From Halanaerobiales bacterium (GTDB lineage Bacteria > Bacillota > Halanaerobiia > Halanaerobiales > M55B127): a stretch of DNA of 64,000 bases. The stretch lies in the NCBI GenBank assembly GCA_018334565.1, contig JAGXLU010000004.1, positions 13,909 through 77,908 on the forward strand, given 5' to 3'. Below, one piece after another: positions 1,215 to 52,720 of the stretch. The notes below the pieces were generated by a model. It ran no database searches and had not been told where the DNA came from. It saw nothing but the letters and a program-made list of their open reading frames with translations. A program made the position numbers and the translations under genes. The first letter of the stretch is position 1; the number at the start of each line of letters is the position of its first letter.

Positions 1215-1835
1215 TAATCGGGTAATCGGTAGATGAATTAATTCATCTACCGACCTCCCACACCTCTGTAAAAAAGGTCTCATATACAGCAGTTCAATAA
1301 CTATCTGTAAATCTTTCGATTGTATTAACTTTCATATTACATTCCATGCTCTGAATATTTATTGAGAAATTCCATTTTCTTTTCAATTAAGAAGCTCTAA
1401 TTAAAAGTTGACTGTGTCCTTCATGTTCTATGAAGTAATAACCAAATATATAATTATCGTTCTGTCCTTTAAAGCCAAAATTTCTAATGGCATATAAGTA
1501 CTATGACAGAAACTGACTCTCATCATAATTCTTATTTCAACCACATATCTAATGTGTCCATGAGACCTCAAAGGTTAAGTATTAAGTCTTTTATTTTATA
1601 TATCAGCCACATTTACTGTAATAACTTTCGCACCATAAAAACTTTGGTTTGTTTAACAAACTTATCAAGTTATAGTCAGCCTCAAATGTGATTTAAGTTC
1701 CTCGGACCAAACTTTGTTTTAAACTTCCTTCAGATTTATAATCACCTACGCCGCCCTTTTCATCAGCTATCTCCTAGATCATGTTCGGAATTCGAGTCTT
1801 TCACACTTTAGATTTAATACATACCTGTCAAATTA
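1215..1835 (-). mobile_element. ORF-less group IIC intron-like RNA, probably a relic
   Basis: The minus-strand read starts right after a hairpin plus U-tract. It contains ordered group II blocks: ..CGAATTCCGAAC, AATCTGAAGGAAG, CACATTTGAGGCT, GATAAGTTTG..AAACCAAAGT, GTCATAGTAC, AAGGACAGAAC, a DV-like TTGAACTGCTGTATA..TACAGAGGTG, and the 24-nt palindrome GGTAGATGAATTAATTCATCTACC. No RT ORF. About 3/4 identical by eye to 24113-24440 over domain I. Confidence 0.7.
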
Positions 1836-1891: not shown

Positions 1892-3457
1892 CTATTTAAA
1901 TGACATTTCTTTAAATACTATCCAAGTATCTGGTCTGGGCACAAAATGAACACTACTGCCCTTATTTATTGCATAGGTATCTTCCTGATAATGAAGCGGT
2001 ATTACAGCCACATTTTCTCTTCCCATCGCCAGCCTATTTAGATCTTCTAATAGGCTTGCTCTGATTGCAGGATCTATAACTTTTTTACTTGCTTCATATA
2101 TTTGATCAGCTACCTGGTCAGAATATCTTGCTCCATTAAAGGTTCCATATCCAGTTTCTTCATCTATTGTATGAAGTAATTTAGAATATGATCTACCAAA
2201 ATCAAAAGTGCCATCAAACCAACCAATTAGATAAAAATCTAATTCATTATTCATGACCTCTTCAAAATATACAGATTTAGGTTTGGCGTCTACCTCCACA
2301 TCTATTCCAACTTTTGAAAGATAGCTTGCCACAGTTGCAGCAATTTGTTCATCCTGTACATACCTGTCATTAGGAGCAGTTAAAGTGATTGAAAATCCAT
2401 CACCATAACCTGCTGCTTCTAGAAGCTCTTTGGCTCTCTTGGGATCATATGGTAACCTTTCAATTTTTTCACTATATCCAGCTGTCGGTGGATCAGGTAT
2501 TTGAGCAGCCGGTGTAGCATGACCAAACATCACTTTGTCTATCAACTCTTCTTCATTAATCGCCATATACATAGCCTGACGTACTCTTACATCAGAAGTT
2601 GGCATTTTATCTTCATTACTCAGACCTAAATAAATAGCCCTTCTTGACGGTCTAGCAATTACTTGTAAATCAGAATTGTTTTCCACTGCCTCATACATAG
2701 TTACAGGTATCCCCTGTAAAATATCCACTTCACCACTACTGATAGTAGCAAGCCTTGTTGAAGCCTCAGTTACAGGTCTTATCTCTGCTTGTTTAACTTC
2801 AGGTACATCATCCCAATATTCTTCATTGGCACTCATTTTTAAATATGAGCCTTTAACCCATTCATCAAAAACATATGGTCCCGTACCAATTGGTTCAGTA
2901 CCCATTTTACCCTGTGATCTTTCCATTGTAGATTCTTTGTCCACAATAAAAACCTGATGCATGTTTTGATCGAAATAAGGGATTGAATCTTTAGTTACAA
3001 TATCAATTACCCATTCATTTCCATCTACAGTACTTACAGATTCTATGGATGACCCAAAAGAAATAAATTCTGATACTTCAGGATTTTCTAGTCTTTCTGC
3101 AAATGTATACTGTACATCTTCCCAGGTAAAATCATTCCCATTGTGGAATTTAACTCCTTTTCTTAGTTCAAATCGCCAGGTAAAACGATCAACTCTTTCC
3201 CAGTTAGTTGCCAAAGCTGGCATTAATTCACCCTTTGTATTCCTTTGTAAAAGTCCTTCAAACATATTACTCATTATCGAAAGATTCGAATCAGCATCTG
3301 AACCGTGTGGATTCATTGTCCTAGGTGGTGCCTCAACAGCAACTGAAACCTGACTATCTTGTGCAAAAACTCCCATACTCCCTATTAATAAAAGACTAAC
3401 AACAATAAATAAAATAAGAATCTTACTACTTTTAATACTCATTACTCTCCTCCTCAT
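1892..3457 (-). CDS. ABC transporter substrate-binding protein, family 5 (peptide/nickel)
   Basis: 521 aa with an N-terminal signal/TM segment. Shares WxFxLxKGVKFHNGxDF, GTGPY and EYWD/DYWG blocks with the paralog at 58231-59745. Confidence 0.9.
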   Translation of the reverse strand: MRRRVMSIKSSKILILFIVVSLLLIGSMGVFAQDSQVSVAVEAPPRTMNPHGSDADSNLSIMSNMFEGLLQRNTKGELMPALATNWERVDRFTWRFELRKGVKFHNGNDFTWEDVQYTFAERLENPEVSEFISFGSSIESVSTVDGNEWVIDIVTKDSIPYFDQNMHQVFIVDKESTMERSQGKMGTEPIGTGPYVFDEWVKGSYLKMSANEEYWDDVPEVKQAEIRPVTEASTRLATISSGEVDILQGIPVTMYEAVENNSDLQVIARPSRRAIYLGLSNEDKMPTSDVRVRQAMYMAINEEELIDKVMFGHATPAAQIPDPPTAGYSEKIERLPYDPKRAKELLEAAGYGDGFSITLTAPNDRYVQDEQIAATVASYLSKVGIDVEVDAKPKSVYFEEVMNNELDFYLIGWFDGTFDFGRSYSKLLHTIDEETGYGTFNGARYSDQVADQIYEASKKVIDPAIRASLLEDLNRLAMGRENVAVIPLHYQEDTYAINKGSSVHFVPRPDTWIVFKEMSFK

Positions 3458-3523
3458 TATTATATACTGTTCATTATATAAAAATATTGCTTTACTTGCA
3501 AACAGAATGAAATATTTTAAATA

Positions 3524-5053
3524 TTATGATAGTGCAAAACTGTCTCTAATTTTATTAATTAAAACATTAGAATCAATAAGTTCTTTTGCCTTCTTAATTT
3601 CTGGATACAATATCCTATCATGTTTGAGAAATCCTATATTTTCTCTGATACATTCATAAATTTTGACTGTGCCTTCTCCTAAATCCTGTTCTGGTTTTTC
3701 TGTTCTGAGATCAACTGCCTGAGCGGCTGTTAATAATTCGATTGCTATGATTTGAGCCACATTATCACAAATTTTATATAAATTTCTGGCACTGATTGAT
3801 CCCATACTCACATGATCTTCCTGATTGGCTGAAGTCGGAATTGAATCGGTACTGGAAGGATTAGCCAGTATTTTGTTTTCAGAAACAATAGAAGCTGAAG
3901 TATATTGGGCTATCATATAACCAGAGTTTAAACCTCCATGTCTAGTCAAAAACATTTCTAAACCATTATTTAAACTGCTGTCTATTAGTTTCGCTGTTCT
4001 TCTTTCTGATACATTACCAATCTCACTAACTGCCATACCTAAATAATCACTACTTAAGGCCAAAGGTTGTCCGTGAAAATTTCCTCCTGAAATAACCTTA
4101 TTCTGCCCGGAAAATATTAAAGGGTTATCAGTAACAGAATTAATTTCCCTTTCCACAATTTCTGTAACATGTGATAAACAATCTCTTGTCGCCCCATGTA
4201 TCTGTGGCCCACATCTTAAAGTATAAGAATCTTGCACCCTTTCATCATCTATATCTACCATTAGATTACTGTTTTTAATCAGTTTTCTTATATTTTGAGC
4301 TGATTTAATTTGTCCGGGATGAGGCCTCAATTTATGAATATCTTCATCAAAGGGTCCTTTTATACCTTTTAGCCCCTCTAAAGAAAGCGCCAATGCTAAA
4401 TCAATTGCGATAATTAGTTTTTTAGCCCTAATGATACTCATGGATTCTAAAGCGGACATCATCTGTGTCCCATTAATGAGCGCTAGACCCTCTTTACTAT
4501 CCAATTTGACAGGTTGAATGTCTTCCTTTTTTAAAGCTGTAATACTATCCACTATATCCCCTTTATATTTGACTTCACCCTTTGCTAACAGGGGTAATAC
4601 CATATGGGCTAATGGTACTAGATCACCACTGGCACCTACAGATCCTTGCTCAGGTATTAAAGGAATAATATCTCTGTTAAACATTTTAATCATACTTTTA
4701 AGTGTATGAAGTTTTATGCCCGAATAACCCTTAGCTAAAGCATTGATACGTAAAAGTATCATTGTTTTAGAGGTCTGGTCATCCAGATAGACTCCCGAAC
4801 CTGCAGCATGACTTACAATCAAGTTTTCCTGTAACTGTATTATTTTATCTTCCGATATTTTTTTGTTACTGAACTTCCCAAAGCCAGTATTGATACCATA
4901 AATTACTTTTTGGCTTTTTATAAATTTTTCTACAGTAGCCCTTGATTTCAAGATATTTTTTTCTGCTTGCTTAGATAAAGCAATCTTTTTATGAGAAAAG
5001 ATTATATCTTCAATTTTATCAATATTCAGATTTTCACCGTTTATATAGTACAA
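3524..5053 (-). CDS. hutH: Histidine ammonia-lyase
   Basis: 509 aa. Aromatic amino-acid lyase family with the MIO-forming ASG in GSVGASGDLVPLAH. Lies in the hut cluster. Confidence 0.9.
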   Translation of the reverse strand: MYYINGENLNIDKIEDIIFSHKKIALSKQAEKNILKSRATVEKFIKSQKVIYGINTGFGKFSNKKISEDKIIQLQENLIVSHAAGSGVYLDDQTSKTMILLRINALAKGYSGIKLHTLKSMIKMFNRDIIPLIPEQGSVGASGDLVPLAHMVLPLLAKGEVKYKGDIVDSITALKKEDIQPVKLDSKEGLALINGTQMMSALESMSIIRAKKLIIAIDLALALSLEGLKGIKGPFDEDIHKLRPHPGQIKSAQNIRKLIKNSNLMVDIDDERVQDSYTLRCGPQIHGATRDCLSHVTEIVEREINSVTDNPLIFSGQNKVISGGNFHGQPLALSSDYLGMAVSEIGNVSERRTAKLIDSSLNNGLEMFLTRHGGLNSGYMIAQYTSASIVSENKILANPSSTDSIPTSANQEDHVSMGSISARNLYKICDNVAQIIAIELLTAAQAVDLRTEKPEQDLGEGTVKIYECIRENIGFLKHDRILYPEIKKAKELIDSNVLINKIRDSFALS

Positions 5054-20559: not shown

Positions 20560-20877
20560 TTACTTATCTTTAAAGTTTTTTGCTGCTTTGATGCGAGATA
20601 TTATAGAAGGATGAGATGTCTTATAGAGCTTTTCCCACCGGTTATATTTTAGATGGGATAAACTACTGTCAGCCAATTTAGCGAATGCTTTACCCAGCTC
20701 CACAGGATCATAAATTATATTGAAAGCAAATTGGTCAGCCTTTATTTCATATTTCCTACTTAAATATAGTTGTAGAGGGTTAATATATGGATAATGACAA
20801 TAAAATATAAATAAAAATTTTAACAACATTAGAATAATTATAATCAATAATCTTAAATAATTTTTGGTCAAAATCAA
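20560..20877 (-). pseudogene. M48 (Ste24/HtpX-like) peptidase remnant lacking the catalytic core
   Basis: A 105-aa ORF joins a TM-like N-terminus directly to the extreme C-terminal M48 block (SRKYEIKADQFA...SHPSIISRI). No HExxH anywhere. Confidence 0.55.
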
Positions 20878-21352
20878 AGTAAAAAAACAATAGAATAGAA
20901 GTAAATTTTATTATATTGTTTACTAATAGTAATTTATCTTTTTTATTGTTATATTCTCAAGCTTTTTCTCTACTTTTTTTATCAAATAAGTTTTCAAATT
21001 ATTTTGCATCCATTAATTATACCCAATCTCCTTATTTATCTAATAGAATATCATACAAAGAAATATCAGCGTTAACATTAAATACGATCTTCTTTTATTA
21101 ATTTATTCTATACTTTGAAAAAATTTCCTGCTTAGTTATTTTTATTATCATTAATTAATTTGATGTAATCAAACAATTTTTTATTAATACATTATACCAG
21201 GGAAATTATTTGCTGCTTATCAATTATTTAGTTTTTAATAAAATATTAATCAATCTACAAAATTCCTAAATGTAATAAATCAAATTTTATATTCTAATAG
21301 TAAAAAATATAAAGGGCGTTTTATAATATTCGAAATATTATTAACAGTATTT

Positions 21353-22462
21353 TCACAATTTCTTTTCAATTTGTTTTATTTTAAAAGCATTAAATATATC
21401 TGTTCTGGTAATGATGCCAACCAGCTGATCTTCCTGTATTACCATCAATCTACCAATGTCTTCTTCTAATAATATTTGTAAAGCCTTATTTACATCTGCT
21501 TCAGGTGATATTTTTTTAATATCGGTTGACATAATATCATCAACATAAATATTATGATGCTGATCTTTTTCTATTGTTCTTATATCCTCCATGGTAACAC
21601 AACCAATCAATTTGCCGTCTTTCATAACCGGATAACCACTGTGACTATGGTGAAGCATCTTATCCAGCAATTCTCGAACAGTCAGATCGCTGGAAATATA
21701 TGATACATCCTTACTCATTAATTCTTTAACCTTTAAATTAGATAATGTAGCTTTAATCAAACTATATTGAAATTCTTGATTTGCCCTCATATAAATAAAG
21801 AAAGCAATTAATACTAAAATAAAGTTACCATATAGAACACCAATGATCCCAAAAATAAAAACTATTGCTTTACTAATCCCTACTGCAATCTTTGTAGCAG
21901 ATAAAAAGTTTCTTTTTCTAGCTAAAAATGCCCTTAATACTCTGCCACCATCATTGGGAAAGGCTGGTATCAAATTAAATAAAGCTAAAAAAACATTTAA
22001 TTCCCCTAAATACAGGATGAAGAAAATAATATCTGGCATTACAATATTAAAACTTATTTGTGCTATAAAAATAAAGGTCAACCCAATTGCCAAACTAACC
22101 ATAGGTCCAATTATGGAAATGCGAAGTTCATCATCGGGATCTTCTGACATTTCTTTTATTTCAGCCACTCCTCCTAACAACATAAGGGTTATACTGTTAA
22201 TCTCTTGCCCCCTTGAACGGGCAACAAAGGAGTGTCCTAATTCATGTAAACCTACACTAATAAATAATGATAAAGTAATAAGCAAACCCAATATATAATC
22301 AGGAACTACCATATCACTATAACTAATATTCATTATTTCAGCCATCATTTCTATATTTGTTGATACTATCCAGGCAATAAAAGGTAGGGCCAATATAAAA
22401 CTGATATGTAGCTTAATTGGTATATTAGAAATACTACCAATTTGAACTGATTTTTTAAACAT
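21353..22462 (-). CDS. Site-2 protease family (M50) metalloprotease with tandem CBS domains
   Basis: 369 aa. HELGHSFVAR, the downstream NLIPAFPNDGGRVLR motif, and a C-terminal CBS pair. Confidence 0.85.
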   Translation of the reverse strand: MFKKSVQIGSISNIPIKLHISFILALPFIAWIVSTNIEMMAEIMNISYSDMVVPDYILGLLITLSLFISVGLHELGHSFVARSRGQEINSITLMLLGGVAEIKEMSEDPDDELRISIIGPMVSLAIGLTFIFIAQISFNIVMPDIIFFILYLGELNVFLALFNLIPAFPNDGGRVLRAFLARKRNFLSATKIAVGISKAIVFIFGIIGVLYGNFILVLIAFFIYMRANQEFQYSLIKATLSNLKVKELMSKDVSYISSDLTVRELLDKMLHHSHSGYPVMKDGKLIGCVTMEDIRTIEKDQHHNIYVDDIMSTDIKKISPEADVNKALQILLEEDIGRLMVIQEDQLVGIITRTDIFNAFKIKQIEKKL

Positions 22463-22474
22463 TAATATTACCCC

Positions 22475-23305
22475 CTAAAATTCAATTTCTAATTTTTTTT
22501 CAAAATCAAATGTTTTTCTATGAATTGGGGTAAAACCAAGCTCTTTTACAGCTATTCTGTGTTCTTTTGTTATATAACCATAGTTTGTATCAAAATGATA
22601 ATCAGGATATTTACCATGCAGTTTTTTCATTCTGTTTTCCCTATGCACCTTTGCCGCTATAGAAGCACAGGCTATTGTGTATATCTTCTTTTTTGTATTT
22701 TTTATAACTTTATTATCTCTTTTATTAATACCATATTTATAGTATATGAAGAAATCTTTTTCAATATTTAATTCAACTGCCTGCTCTAATGTCTCTTCTA
22801 TTTCTCTATAACCTGTTTTAATCGCTTCTTTCAAACCTAATTTATCAATTGCCTCCACATTAATATGCTTTATATTAATATATTCAGATTCATTTTTTAG
22901 CTTCTTAAAAATTTTTAATCTCTGTTTTTGAGTTAAATTATTACAATAATCAATACCCATAATTTCTGTGAAACGATTTAATTTCAATATACATAAGGTT
23001 AAAGGACCAGCTGCAGCTGTCAAACCAGTAACATAAAATCCATATATATTATGATAACCTTTGTTATATATTTGGTTTTCTATGTTTTTAAAAGTTGATA
23101 GTTTCCCTTTCAATTTCTGTATTTTATGATATCTTTTTTCACAATTTAATGCTATCTTAGTGGTAGTTTTTCTGCTATCAGTAAAAAGAGCATCAATTAA
23201 ATCACGATCTATCTCAATTTTTTTAATTAATCTTCTGATTTCAGCAACAGATTTATCAGTTATATTATATTTATCATCAAATTGTAATTTTGGTTTGTAC
23301 TTCAT
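22475..23305 (-). CDS. RNase HII-like protein with substituted active-site residues
   Basis: 276 aa. The C-terminus ACASIAAKVHRENRMKKLHGKYPDYHFDTNYGYITKEHRIAVKELGFTPIHRKTF is RNase HII-like. Where the family has IAGxDEAGRGPLAGPV, this protein reads IYGFYVTGLTAAAGPL. Confidence 0.65.
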   Translation of the reverse strand: MKYKPKLQFDDKYNITDKSVAEIRRLIKKIEIDRDLIDALFTDSRKTTTKIALNCEKRYHKIQKLKGKLSTFKNIENQIYNKGYHNIYGFYVTGLTAAAGPLTLCILKLNRFTEIMGIDYCNNLTQKQRLKIFKKLKNESEYINIKHINVEAIDKLGLKEAIKTGYREIEETLEQAVELNIEKDFFIYYKYGINKRDNKVIKNTKKKIYTIACASIAAKVHRENRMKKLHGKYPDYHFDTNYGYITKEHRIAVKELGFTPIHRKTFDFEKKLEIEF

Positions 23306-23454
23306 CAGATCAGCACCTTGTTTTTTTATATAAACTCTTTATTATATAATTATTCATTAAAGTCCAAAATCCTTTATATAAAGTACTTTATAACCCTGCA
23401 AAAACAATCGGTTTTATAATTTCACTTTTTATCACAAATTGTTTAATTTTTAAA

Positions 23455-23985
23455 TTTTTATGTTTTTTAAAACTAAGTTAATTACTTTCTTATCTTGAAT
23501 CTTCCTAGCTACTCTGGACATTAAAATATCATGATTAACTCGGTCAAAAAACTTTGAAAGGTCCATATCTACTATTCAATGTTTCCCGGATTGCATATAT
23601 TCTCTAGCTTAATTTACTACCATCTTCTGGTTGTGCCTCTTTCTGAATTCAAGACTACTGGCTGAAAATTCTTCATCAAATTTCCAGTCCGATTTCTGTA
23701 TCATTGCCAGCTGGTACGCAGGTATTTTCGGAGTTCCGACACCTGCATTCCATCTATTTTAGGAGCAATGTCTTTCTTCTCCATGTATTCCAGTGCTTAA
23801 ATACATTATCCCATAAAATGTGCTCCATCAATTCCATACTTTTCCTCTTGCGACACTTCTCCTATCAGCCGTAACGGATATGTTCAGCACTCCAATAGGC
23901 CCTTCGTACTTCCAGTGCCGGTATAACCCCTGTAGCATTTTCTGTCTTCATTGCATATCCATGTCGATACTCATATGTCCATCTC
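23455..23985 (-). pseudogene. Group II intron reverse transcriptase/maturase, fragmented
   Basis: Frame-hopping translation gives LMEHIL..NVFKALEYMEKKDIAPKIDGMQVSELRKYL and FSASSLEFRKRHNQ..IVDMDLSKFFDRVNHDILMSRVARKIQDKKVINLV (RT domains 0-4). There are several stops and frameshifts. The fingers-to-X/En part is absent. Confidence 0.75.
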
Positions 23986-24440
23986 TGATTTGATGTTCAA
24001 GCCTTCCCTGAATATCGTGCATCCCGGGAGTAACAACTACTTAAAGTAGTTATTGCTATAAATCAGTTAGACTAAAAACTTTGATGTGTTGTGAAACAGT
24101 ATACAGTACTATGACAGAAACTAACTTCTCATGCTAAATCTTATTTAAACCACATATATAATGTGTCCATGAAATCTCACAGCTTAAGTACTAAATCTTT
24201 CATTTCATATATCCGTCATATCTACTGTGATAACTTTCGCACAATAGGGACTTTGTTTTGTATTGCAAACTCATCCAGTTATATTCAGCCTCAAATGTGA
24301 TTTAAGTACCTCGGATGGAAATTTTGCTTTAGACTTCCTTCAGATTCGTAGTCACCTACGACACCCTTGTCTTTAGCTAATTTTTAAATCGTGTTCGGGA
24401 TTCAGGACTTTCCCCCTATAAATTAAGTGCATGCCTGTCA
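23455..24440 (-). mobile_element. Group IIC intron relic (domains I-III plus degraded, 3'-truncated RT ORF)
   Basis: Starts on the minus strand just after the csp terminator. Blocks: TATAGGGGGAAAGTCCTGAATCCCGAAC, CAAGGGTGTCGTAGGTGA, GAATCTGAAGGAAG, CACATTTGAGGCT, GGATGAGTTTGCAATACAAAACAAAGTCC, GTCATAGTAC, CAGGGAAGGCTTGAAC. RT-like reading frames follow. Confidence 0.8.
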
Positions 24441-24450
24441 AAAAAACAGT

Positions 24451-24478
24451 AAAGCCCCGGTTAAATAACCGGGGCTTT
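24451..24478 (-). terminator. Rho-independent terminator of csp
   Basis: Minus strand reads AAAGCCCCGG-TTATTTAA-CCGGGGCTTT followed by ACTGTTTTTTT. Confidence 0.8.
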
Positions 24479-24499: not shown

Positions 24500-24706
24500 T
24501 TACATTTTTTCTACATTTTCAGCTTGAGGACCACGCTCAGCTTCAACTATTTCAAATTCTACCTCTTCGCCTTCTTCTAAACTTTTATAGCCATCTTCAT
24601 TAATAGCAGAAAAATGTACAAAAACATCTTCTTCAGAGTCTTCCCTTTCAATAAATCCAAAACCTTTTCTAGAATCAAACCATTTAACTTTTCCAGTATA
24701 AATCAT
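24500..24706 (-). CDS. csp: Cold-shock protein (CspA family)
   Basis: 68 aa. [25 protein letters not shown] (RNP1/RNP2). Confidence 0.95.
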
Positions 24707-24741: not shown

Positions 24742-24831
24742 TGGTGCCGGGGATCGGGCTCGAACCGATACGGGAAAATAATTCCCACCGGATTTTAAGT
24801 CCGATGCGTCTGCCAATTCCGCCACCCCGGC
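24742..24831 (-). tRNA. tRNA-Leu (anticodon UAA), CCA encoded
   Basis: The reverse complement GCCGGGGTGGCGGAATTGGCAGACGCATCGGACTTAAAATCCGG..long variable arm..GGTTCGAGCCCGATCCCCGGCACCA folds as a cloverleaf. Anticodon loop is CTTAAAA. Confidence 0.9.
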
Positions 24832-24925: not shown

Positions 24926-26236
24926 TCAAGCTCTTTTATTATATACTTTTCTTTGTTTAACTTCACCTGACTTGTATAAGGCAAACTCTGTAGCAGCAGA
25001 TCCGGAAATTTCTGTAAATAAACTGGTAAATAAGATGATATTAAAAATTATGACCGCCACATCAACTTCTGTATTGGTTATATGTGCAAAATCTCTTTGA
25101 ACTATATAAGCCAAATCTAATGCGACACCTATCTGGGGCATAAGTCCAAAACCTATATATTTTTGGACACTGTTAGGTGCTTTGGCTATCTTTGCTCCAA
25201 TTGATGCCCCACCAATTTTCCCTATTAATCTTGTTATTGTATATATTAATGCTATTATCATAAATGAACTTGTAAAAATATTAGTGATTTGTATTTTGGT
25301 ACCGGCAAGTATAAAAAACAGTGCATATAAAGGCATAGTTAAAGTTTCTATTAAATCAGCTACTCCAATATGTCTTTTAGCAAAATTACAAAAAGCAAAT
25401 CCTACAAATAAATTATATATAAGTGGGGAAATATGAAGAGCAATTGATAGTGAAGTACCTCCAATCACTGTTAATAGTATCAAGAAAATCTTCTGTTTTT
25501 TTGAATGGTCAAAACAAATATACCTTTGAGAAACATAACCAATTGCTAGACCAAGACCGGCTGCTGATATAATTTTTACTAAGGGTAGAATAAAACCATT
25601 TACAATATTTAAAGCCTGCGCAGGATCAATAGTAATTAATGATATCGGTTCAACAAAACTAAATATAACGAGGGCTAAAGCCTCATCTAAAGCCAGAACA
25701 ATCATTAAAGTAGCTGAAAAAATACCCTGCACTCCATATTCTTTTAAAATCAAAACAGTTGCCGCAGGAGCAGTAGCTGTAGCAAAGGCTCCCATCAGGA
25801 TTGCTAAATAAGGTGGTTTGCCTATATATAACATACTCAATGATACCAATGCAAAAGCCCCTATAGATTCAAAAAGAATAATTAAAGTAAACTCCGTTTC
25901 CATTTTTTTTAGAACTTTAAGAGAAAGCGAAGTACCTATAGTAAAAGAGATAAAAGAAACTGCTAAAATCGTTACGAAGTCAAAAGAATTAATTAAATAT
26001 GCATACCAATCAATAAACTCCTCACTAAAAAAGGGGATTTGTTTTATAAGGCTAGAGCTAAATAGTGTTCCCACTAATACATAACCAGCCACACTGGGTA
26101 AACGAAATTTTTCAGTAAATGTATGGATTAAAAAAATAAATAATAATAATAAACCAATGATGAATATTATTTTATAACTTCTATGATGAACCATCATCCA
26201 ATTTTGCAAGTCTAATAAGTTATTGGTATAATCCAC
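24926..26236 (-). CDS. Cation:proton antiporter (CPA/Kef-type Na+/H+ exchanger family)
   Basis: 436 aa, about 12 TM, with the typical sodium/hydrogen exchanger family layout. Confidence 0.7.
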   Translation of the reverse strand: MDYTNNLLDLQNWMMVHHRSYKIIFIIGLLLLFIFLIHTFTEKFRLPSVAGYVLVGTLFSSSLIKQIPFFSEEFIDWYAYLINSFDFVTILAVSFISFTIGTSLSLKVLKKMETEFTLIILFESIGAFALVSLSMLYIGKPPYLAILMGAFATATAPAATVLILKEYGVQGIFSATLMIVLALDEALALVIFSFVEPISLITIDPAQALNIVNGFILPLVKIISAAGLGLAIGYVSQRYICFDHSKKQKIFLILLTVIGGTSLSIALHISPLIYNLFVGFAFCNFAKRHIGVADLIETLTMPLYALFFILAGTKIQITNIFTSSFMIIALIYTITRLIGKIGGASIGAKIAKAPNSVQKYIGFGLMPQIGVALDLAYIVQRDFAHITNTEVDVAVIIFNIILFTSLFTEISGSAATEFALYKSGEVKQRKVYNKRA

Positions 26237-51905: not shown

Positions 51906-52720
51906 GTAGTTAGGCACCGTCAAGCTGTCGTGTCTATAGGCACTTGCTCACCTACAACTTCCCTCACGACTTACCAGCCTTTGACTCAATAATCCAGTCC
52001 ATTAACCCCTGTTCTTCATGATATTATCAACTGCGTTTTAAAAATCCAATCGCACCTGCTTATATATTATTACTCAGGTCACAGTGTTTCTGCCCTGTCT
52101 TACCTACGGTTTTTCTTCCCCTTAAGCACCATCCGGCAAACTCACTTTCTATCAGTGTCTAAACTACTTAACAGTTAATCAACCACTCTTATCTTGTCTC
52201 CAATTTCGGATAGCATCAGTACCCTTCACTCCAGTTGGCTTTTTCCTCGGAACAACTATCATCACTACTATGGTAACGTCTGAATACTGATGTAGCTTTA
52301 CTTCAGTTTTCCCACTAAAGGTTATACCTCCGCTTACTCAATCCAGTCTGGTTTGAGACTCATCATCATCACCATCTTGCAGTCATTTTGACCCTAAGCA
52401 CACCCATCAACTCAACATACTCCTATGGTCTATTGGACTTCCCCATTGTGTGGGAAGGTCGCCGTTGATGAATGCCACCCCTGGTTCATATATTATTCCG
52501 GACTAACTGCTCGCCTCAGACTCTTCAGATTCCACCTCACAGTGAACACCCTGTCCTTGTCGGCTTCATGTACCGTCATTTATAAACTTAGGCTGAAGTT
52601 TGTGTTCTCCGTTTACTCACCCATTTCGTCTGTAAATGCCACAATATCTCAACCATATTTTCCATACTTCCAGCACAGATAGAATTTTCATCTACTATTG
52701 GTATAGACTACGAGACACAC
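51906..52720 (-). mobile_element. Group II intron 5' portion (domains I-III and start of IV), 3'-truncated
   Basis: The minus strand begins GTGTGTCTCGTAGTCTATACC, 11 nt after a hairpin plus U-tract. It contains AGCCGACAAGGACAGGGTGTTCACTGTGAGGTGGAATCTGAAGAG and many complementary segments. It is visibly GC-richer than its flanks and has no credible ORF. Confidence 0.6.

Follow-up and report, generated by a model that had tools for sequence, protein, structure and literature searches.

RNase HII, a DNA-repair nuclease, is usually regarded as near-universal and invariably catalytic. The four carboxylates of RNase H2 have been termed "absolutely conserved" (PMC3025331), and according to a review active-site mutations lower or fully abrogate RNase HII activity (PMC13492167). 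The canonical substrate groove is positively charged apart from its carboxylate-rich active site. Around that site, the GRG motif forms a bulge that senses the 2'-OH, with R22 in the minor groove; DSK lies in a mobile loop and puts K47 on the scissile phosphate; Tyr163 senses the junction; R141 and R182 stabilise GRG, and K138 contacts a phosphate (PMC3025331; residue numbering and roles here and below are those given for T. maritima RNase H2 by Rychlik et al., 2010). Firmicute-type RnhB proteins (S. aureus 5Y9P, the RnhB of B. subtilis and G. stearothermophilus) combine the domains PF27457 and PF01351, and a passage of the same review, citing Muroya 2002 and Permanasari 2013, gives the N-terminal extension of Bacillus RNase HII a role in substrate binding (PMC13492167). 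Here we describe a relative of these enzymes encoded at 22475-23305 on the minus strand of a 64,000-nucleotide stretch, the whole of which we call the window, of contig JAGXLU010000004.1 from a Halanaerobiales bacterium metagenome-assembled genome (MAG; GCA_018334565.1). All four catalytic carboxylates are replaced in this protein. The reading that we prefer, and hold at about an even chance, is that it is a maintained RNase HII pseudoenzyme, most likely a metal-independent binder of nucleic acid that does not cleave.

The protein has the architecture and length of Firmicute-type RnhB, which also provides its best sequence and fold matches. Unlike those enzymes, it has replacements at the four DEDD carboxylates, at the Arg and second Gly of GRG and at DSK, it carries extra conserved peptides at both ends, and its gene lies outside the rplS-rbgA-rnhB-yraN locus. 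The gene and its parts are listed below; pN/pS is the region-wise ratio of the proportions of non-synonymous and synonymous differences.

22475-23305, minus strand: full open reading frame (ORF) of a predicted catalytically dead RNase HII-family protein, 276 aa plus TAG (profile, alignment, model, Foldseek).
23314-23319, minus strand: Shine-Dalgarno (SD) sequence AAGGTG, 8 nt 5' of the ATG, kept in relatives (locus comparison).
23051-23305, minus strand: residues 1-85, probable Firmicute-type RnhB N-terminal helical extension after a clade-conserved N-terminal peptide (MKYxPKLQFxDKYNI); aligns to 5y9p and NF000594, modelled as three helices, invariant at 23 of 85 positions, pN/pS 0.17.
22970-23050, minus strand: residues 86-112, once the active-site strand beta1 with its "GRG" loop and here IYGFYVTGLTAAAGPL, with Y91 for D18, V92 for E19 and G94-L95-T96 for GRG (alignments); pN/pS 0.03, the tightest segment.
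22931-22969, minus strand: residues 113-125, where the mobile DSK loop used to be, reading Y120-C121-N122 here and YSN in most relatives (alignments); pN/pS 0.05.
22688-22744, minus strand: residues 188-206, from Y188-Y189-K190-Y191 (Y189 for D107) to K199 and T204-K205-K206 (T204/K205 for D124), Tyr and Lys standing at carboxylate sites (alignments).
22505-22681, minus strand: residues 209-267, the C-terminal helical domain (helix-loop-helix), which is retained and in which K219 (=K138), R222 (=R141), Y244 (=Y163) and R263 (=R182) never vary (alignments); pN/pS 0.13.
22478-22504, minus strand: residues 268-276, clade-conserved C-terminal tail FDFEKKLEIEF, of low model confidence (alignment, model).

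The ORF starts with ATG and ends with TAG. Its NCBI record (MBS3810612.1, locus tag KGY44_01945) was named "hypothetical protein" by PGAP, a label that follows from the NCBIfam "ribonuclease HII" equivalogs (NF000594, NF000595 and others): all nine match the protein and all nine score under their curated cutoffs (best 141.4 bits against 243). Pfam RNase_HII (PF01351) matches at E = 4.2e-14 and 53.3 bits, against a gathering cutoff of 25.8, over residues 98-266 only, so that the alignment starts past the strand that would carry the DE pair. Structure prediction, proposed as a check in the initial annotation of this DNA, returned an AlphaFold2 model (from alignment A1) with a mean predicted local distance difference test score (pLDDT) of 91.9 and a predicted template-modelling score (pTM) of 0.86. 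All 34 Foldseek matches in the PDB at E <= 0.001 are RNase HII, H2 or H3, led by E. coli RNase HII 7UWE, T. maritima 3O3F and S. aureus 5Y9P (best E = 2.5e-15, target-normalised TM 0.72-0.85), and the RNase HIII matches are weaker (E = 1e-7 to 6e-5). The model thus predicts, with high confidence, an RNase HII fold with an RNase H-like alpha/beta core and a C-terminal helical domain. The protein is strongly basic, with an isoelectric point (pI) of 9.6 and 56 Lys plus Arg against 35 Asp plus Glu.

Residues 1-85 form three helices in the model. The initial annotation had described this extension as mimicking Firmicute RnhB; the likeness stands, and the extension is probably homologous rather than a mimic, because an alignment to Firmicute-type RnhB covers residues 19-85 (against residues 7-75 of S. 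aureus 5y9p, and also against NF000594, positions 2-246). For PF27457 (RNase_HII_N), no match is reported for the window protein and none is precomputed for its close relatives.

A search of 5.8 billion proteins placed the protein in a tight clade of about 23 clusters with 46-93% identity, nearly all 271-276 aa long, beyond which the next matches are ordinary RNase HII at 35% identity or less. Members come from uncultured Halanaerobiales or Bacillota MAGs and from hypersaline metagenomes, and in a scan of one genome per GTDB species with a clade-only alignment the gene occurred in ten species, all of them uncultured Halanaerobiales or Bacillota MAGs and none from a cultured genus. The ORF is intact at 271-276 aa on more than 30 independent contigs (NCBI, JGI, ENA, Logan). 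Searching 1.84 billion representatives with a HMMER profile of the clade yielded 14,644 RNase HII relatives; among the best 150 of these, the DE pair is missing from the clade's own representatives and from one short protein, P0367, only.

The catalytic positions were located by three alignments: phmmer (pairwise HMMER) to the T. maritima and S. aureus PDB chains, MAFFT with canonical RnhB, and the clade profile against PDB chains. Only at D124 do their results differ; the other three catalytic positions and all motifs come out the same. The replacement of the DE motif in an RNase HII-like protein, which had been noticed from the sequence, is borne out by all three, with Y91 at D18 (18 Tyr and 5 Phe among the 23 clade sequences, to which all counts below refer) and V92 at E19 (20 Val, 2 Ala, 1 Ser). 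A third Asp, D107, has become Y189 (17 Tyr, 6 Phe), a loss absent from the initial annotation. D124 falls on T204 with phmmer or on K205 with MAFFT and the clade profile, both non-acidic (22 Thr and 1 Ile in the T204 column); the last catalytic Asp is therefore replaced as annotated, at KNTKKK, just upstream of the KKKIYT to which it had been assigned. All four DEDD positions are non-acidic in 23/23 sequences, and no aligner puts an acidic residue at any of them; the outcome that the initial annotation had named as its refutation, a profile alignment with acidic residues at all four, thus did not occur. Because every metal-ligating carboxylate is replaced, two-metal cleavage, which defines the family and falls 5' of a ribonucleotide in a duplex (EC 3.1.26.4), is predicted to be lost.

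The residues that contact the substrate have fared unequally. G21-R22-G23 corresponds to G94-L95-T96, with the first Gly in 23/23, Leu, Ile or Met at the second position and a variable third; D45-S46-K47 corresponds to Y120-C121-N122 (Tyr in 23/23, Ser and Asn in 21/23 each); and K122 aligns with K202, a Lys in just 11/23. Four residues are retained in every clade member, namely K219 for K138, R222 for R141, Y244 for Y163 and R263 for R182, within motifs shared with canonical RnhB: ASIxAK(K138)VxR(R141), GY(Y163)xTxxH and HR(R182)K(S/T)F. Around the former carboxylate positions, new invariant Lys residues (K199, K206) have appeared together with K/R190 and with the aromatics Y88/F, F90, Y188, Y191 and Y209. 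The core holds only two invariant or near-invariant acidic residues, D154 and E223, and these match conserved non-catalytic positions of canonical enzymes.

Could the protein nonetheless be an active RNase H, using unconventional residues or borrowed metal ligands? The fold and the equivalents of Y163, K138, R141 and R182 would suit such an enzyme. We consider it very improbable, given that the carboxylates held to be absolutely conserved (PMC3025331) are non-acidic throughout the clade, that D154 and E223 sit at non-catalytic positions, and that active-site mutations cut or abolish activity in known enzymes (PMC13492167).

Selection on the gene was measured as the ratio of non-synonymous to synonymous rates (dN/dS) by the Nei-Gojobori method (NG86), using codon alignments from independent loci and pairs without synonymous saturation. 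Three pairs could be compared with the adjacent M50-CBS protease gene, described below:

L001-L009: dS 0.45, dN/dS 0.107 for this gene and 0.040 for the adjacent protease gene.
L002-L006: dS 0.74, dN/dS 0.129 for this gene and 0.055 for the adjacent protease gene.
L004-L006: dS 0.99, dN/dS 0.16 for this gene and 0.051 for the adjacent protease gene.

The window gene differs from its 93%-identical relative by 27 synonymous and 20 non-synonymous changes, for a dN/dS of 0.17. Most other gene pairs are synonymously saturated while the proteins remain 47-64% identical, and the dead state has therefore been held for long. Purifying selection is strongest on the remodelled former active-site strand (pN/pS 0.03) and loop (0.05), followed by the C-terminal domain (0.13), the N-terminal extension (0.17) and the middle of the core (0.28-0.36), which is the opposite of a pattern of decay.

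A decaying gene or recent pseudogene, or an artefact of assembly or annotation, is accordingly scarcely credible. The plain NCBI label and the signs of local decay nearby in the lineage of the window (an M48 remnant, the loss of DUF1232, an intron relic) would agree with decay; the intact ORF on more than 30 independent contigs, a dN/dS of 0.11-0.17 with synonymous sites saturated between clade members, and the conservation of both ribosome-binding site and protein length do not. We rejected the pseudogene outright, as the ORF is intact in all full-length copies under that same dN/dS. The gene is best read, from codon-level comparison, as encoding a long-maintained pseudoenzyme. This upholds what the initial annotation had suggested, a maintained and probably non-catalytic protein, on the strength of the non-acidic DEDD positions, the dN/dS values, the confident fold, and the conserved SD and operon partner.

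The surroundings of the gene are also conserved, and its immediate neighbours are the following:

21353-22462, minus strand: M50-CBS gene, downstream and co-oriented, encoding 369 aa with Peptidase_M50 (site-2 protease) and two C-terminal CBS domains (profile matches).
22463-22474, minus strand: intergenic spacer GGGGTAATATTA, 12 nt, holding the SD of the protease gene; 12-19 nt in all relatives (locus comparison).
24500-24706, minus strand: cold-shock domain (CSD) gene, csp, a conserved upstream neighbour with its own terminator hairpin at 24451-24478 (locus comparison).

The initial annotation had thus correctly placed an intact ORF 12 nt upstream of an M50-CBS gene. In all loci the order is alpha-amylase, CSD gene, dead RNase HII and M50-CBS, then usually DUF1232, an M48 peptidase, MtnA and a metallophosphoesterase. 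The SD sequences of both the dead RNase HII gene and the M50-CBS gene are conserved in all loci examined, and no terminator-like site lies between these two genes; csp ends in a strong hairpin terminator. Scanning metagenomes with an alignment of the protease recovered 68 loci. The dead RNase HII gene is directly upstream in 11/11 of the metagenomic loci that have a protease ortholog of at least 77% identity and enough upstream sequence, and the same adjacency holds in 10/10 GTDB-species loci. An anti-phage defence or phage protein was also considered and rejected, as there is no PADLOC match and the chromosomal synteny is stable; the sole PHROG match is an RNase HII-like family of unknown function.

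Throughout the lineage the dead RNase HII and M50-CBS genes lie strictly side by side, 12-19 nt apart and with coupled SD sites. This raises the alternative that the protein is dedicated to the presumably co-transcribed protease as a regulator, adaptor or substrate, its RNase HII scaffold being reused as an interaction module with no role in nucleic-acid binding. SpoIVFB, a CBS-bearing M50 protease, is controlled by partner proteins encoded nearby, and the most conserved surfaces of our protein, the remodelled pocket and the terminal peptides, are those that an interface would be expected to conserve. We hold this only tentatively, as a minority view: the linkage is missing in 54/54 loci with a distant M50-CBS protease, where there is no conserved upstream partner, the modelled 276-aa protein has no transmembrane segment, and its strongly basic character and retained nucleic-acid-contact residues point elsewhere.

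A second alternative starts from the pocket itself. The former active site may have been rebuilt as a Tyr/Lys pocket that recognises a small ligand or nucleotide or supports metal-independent chemistry, for instance with a Tyr nucleophile, making the protein a neo-functionalised enzyme or sensor. Selection is tightest exactly at the replaced active-site elements (pN/pS 0.03-0.05), and the replacements are themselves conserved (Y/F91, Y120 in 23/23, Y188, Y/F189, Y191, T204, K199, K206). Yet the aromatics may just fill and stabilise the cavity left by carboxylates and metal ions, and no catalytic-type His/Arg constellation is evident. No precedent surfaced in the literature for the RNase H-like superfamily, and we know of no such Tyr/Lys chemistry there; we judge this alternative distinctly unlikely. 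A bolder proposal is that the two-metal site became a strongly selected Tyr/Lys site for a specific ligand, a nucleic-acid feature or metal-independent chemistry, which would make this the first neo-functionalised RNase HII, possibly signalling to the CBS-domain site-2 protease; it has, in our view, a small but real chance of being right.

The non-cleaving nucleic-acid binder that we prefer would work as follows. The sole acidic patch of an otherwise basic groove has turned aromatic and basic, so that nucleic acid could be bound without metal and left uncut. Retention of the C-terminal domain, of the Y163, K138, R141 and R182 equivalents and of the N-terminal extension, together with the pI of 9.6, would support binding, and the conserved C-terminal domain is the one that canonically holds the non-cleaved strand, mainly by shape. 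The protein would be co-transcribed with the M50-CBS site-2 protease, directly downstream of the gene for a cold-shock RNA chaperone. Having given up R22, K47, K122 and the second Gly of the GRG bulge, the protein probably no longer targets the canonical single-ribonucleotide junction. For the same reason, of the RNA/DNA-hybrid binder suggested by the initial annotation we keep general nucleic-acid binding as plausible and do not endorse hybrid binding specifically.

Several points weigh against the nucleic-acid binder. Of the four charged contacts to the RNA-containing (cleaved) strand, three (R22, K47, K122) are lost or variable, and Y163, R141 and R182 may have been kept for structural reasons alone. 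We infer nucleic-acid binding from ancestry and charge only, and we infer that the replacement residues cluster in space from where the corresponding canonical residues lie. A new specific ligand or a protein interface would explain the very strong constraint on the pocket equally well. As for the operon, an RNase HII gene occurs within 4 kb in 0/54 loci with a distant M50-CBS protease (at most 43% identity), which share no common upstream partner and mostly have a divergent gene there. The linkage to the protease, seen in one fairly narrow lineage only, may consequently be inherited synteny instead of functional coupling.

Among canonical sequences, the nearest to the clade profile is P0253 (276 aa, 159 bits), which keeps every catalytic motif. 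It belongs to a "long" group of metagenomic RnhB proteins (P0253, P0255, P0256, P0265, P0266; 272-293 aa) scoring 159-122 bits with that profile. Long group and dead clade have in common an extra N-terminal "QLxL/F" peptide, a "DSRKTTT" stretch and a C-terminal tail ("F.F...QL.L" in the long group). Unlike the dead clade, the long group retains DE, G(R/K/C)G, D(S/C/G)K and both later Asp, is presumably active, and is unlinked to csp or M50-CBS. The dead clade is predicted to derive from a "long" Firmicute-type RnhB with an N-terminal helical extension, because P0253 has the same N-terminal peptide, "DSRKTTT" stretch and C-terminal tail. The exact sister group is not fixed by a neighbour-joining tree, which puts the clade on a long branch beside P0367, possibly by long-branch attraction. 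P0367, a metagenomic protein of 202 aa, resembles the dead clade in its degenerate site, with VDFAGITS in place of DEAGRG and no DSK. Unlike the dead clade, it keeps the D18, D107 and D124 equivalents, is without the N-terminal extension and has Asn for the K138 equivalent; it looks like a separate, apparently independent partial degeneration.

The canonical RnhB genes P0031 and P0503 lie in an rpsP-rimM-trmD-rplS-(lepB)-rbgA-rnhB-yraN cluster and the dead gene does not. The usual rbgA-rnhB setting is likewise missing for P0253, which neighbours a BFN-domain gene, and for P0404, which neighbours a PIN/ParA-like pair (loci L021 and L022). Since the nearest canonical relatives (the P0253 group) also lie outside the canonical context, the location of the dead gene does no more than suggest the paralogy put forward in the initial annotation, that is, to an active rnhB in the same genome. 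We found no second, canonical RNase HII or HIII gene in the 64-kb window or in any fetched locus, and tblastn with proteins of the canonical locus (Ffh, S16, RimM, TrmD, L19, LepB, RbgA, YraN, ComM) gave zero matches in the same sequences. Searches aimed at a canonical RnhB from Halanaerobiales brought up RnhB of Clostridia and Bacilli only (query P0031) and short metagenomic contigs only (query P0253); P0503, from a "Bacillota bacterium" MAG, belongs to a different assembly. In B. subtilis the joint loss of rnhB and rnhC is synthetically lethal (PMC13492167). If it is true that these genomes have no active type 2 RNase H, how ribonucleotides leave their DNA becomes a question.

The window carries one further element, which separates the csp terminator from the dead RNase HII gene and lies outside the functional unit:

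23395-24442, minus strand: lineage-specific 1,048-bp insertion, a 5' relic of a group II intron (Rfam group-II-D1D4-3 at 24189-24361, minus strand, 125 bits).

The adjoining intron relic had been recognised correctly in the initial annotation. The insertion carries a D1-D4 segment but neither D5/D6 nor a reverse-transcriptase ORF; L018-L020 and L033 share it, and the 93%-identical relative L017 lacks it. Some bacterial group II introns target terminators, a habit that fits an insertion just past the csp hairpin. More group-II-D1D4-3 matches at 1580-1751 (minus strand, 78 bits) and 52368-52546 (minus strand, 32 bits) suggest several intron copies or relics, the latter inside a 4.5-kb stretch (about 48.6-53.1 kb) that has no ORF of at least 150 aa.

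Other departures from the common gene order concern the flanks. The M48 (HtpX-like) peptidase gene at 20563-21013 on the minus strand, 3' of M50-CBS, is an internally deleted remnant in which residues 3-79 and 304-380 are left and about 225 are missing. The DUF1232 gene found between M50-CBS and M48 in other lineage members is absent from the window, a case of local decay beside a well-maintained gene. A tRNA-Leu(TAA) (24742-24831, minus strand) and a Na+/H+ exchanger gene (24926-26236, minus strand) lie between amylase and csp, as also in L018 and L019, and in the others amylase leads directly to csp. Upstream of the conserved block in L001, from a Salar de Ascotan MAG, an IS200/IS605-type pair (Y1 transposase and OrfB/TnpB) and split Ppx-GppA ORFs occupy positions 3426-4975.

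Practical reach is limited for now by a narrow, uncultured host range. In this lineage, Pfam-level "RNase_HII" or JGI "ribonuclease HII" labels over-call activity. A dead natural version of RNase HII would show that the type 2 scaffold can be repurposed in bacteria, and by analogy with engineered dead RNase H, which serves as a hybrid probe, the binding specificity of a natural non-cleaving variant could be informative or useful.

Known systems resemble the protein in part. RNase HIII (RnhC) also has the type 2 RNase H fold and a diverged junction module, without the GRG Arg and the Tyr (PMC3025331; PMC13492167). RNase HIII keeps its catalytic carboxylates, is active and has another N-terminal domain, whereas the dead protein keeps the Tyr, has lost the carboxylates and is closer to HII. 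Inactive RNase H-fold domains, in which the fold is kept as a scaffold or binding module, occur in the connection subdomain of retroviral reverse transcriptase and in the RNase H-like domain of Prp8. These are type 1-like and lie inside large eukaryotic or viral proteins, whereas ours is a free-standing bacterial protein of type 2. Pseudoenzymes are common across many families, and our full-text literature search found no description of a natural DEDD-less RNase HII or RNase HII pseudoenzyme. The pseudoenzyme concept is thus not new, and a DEDD-less RNase HII whose dead site is its best conserved part appears to be an undescribed variant of it.

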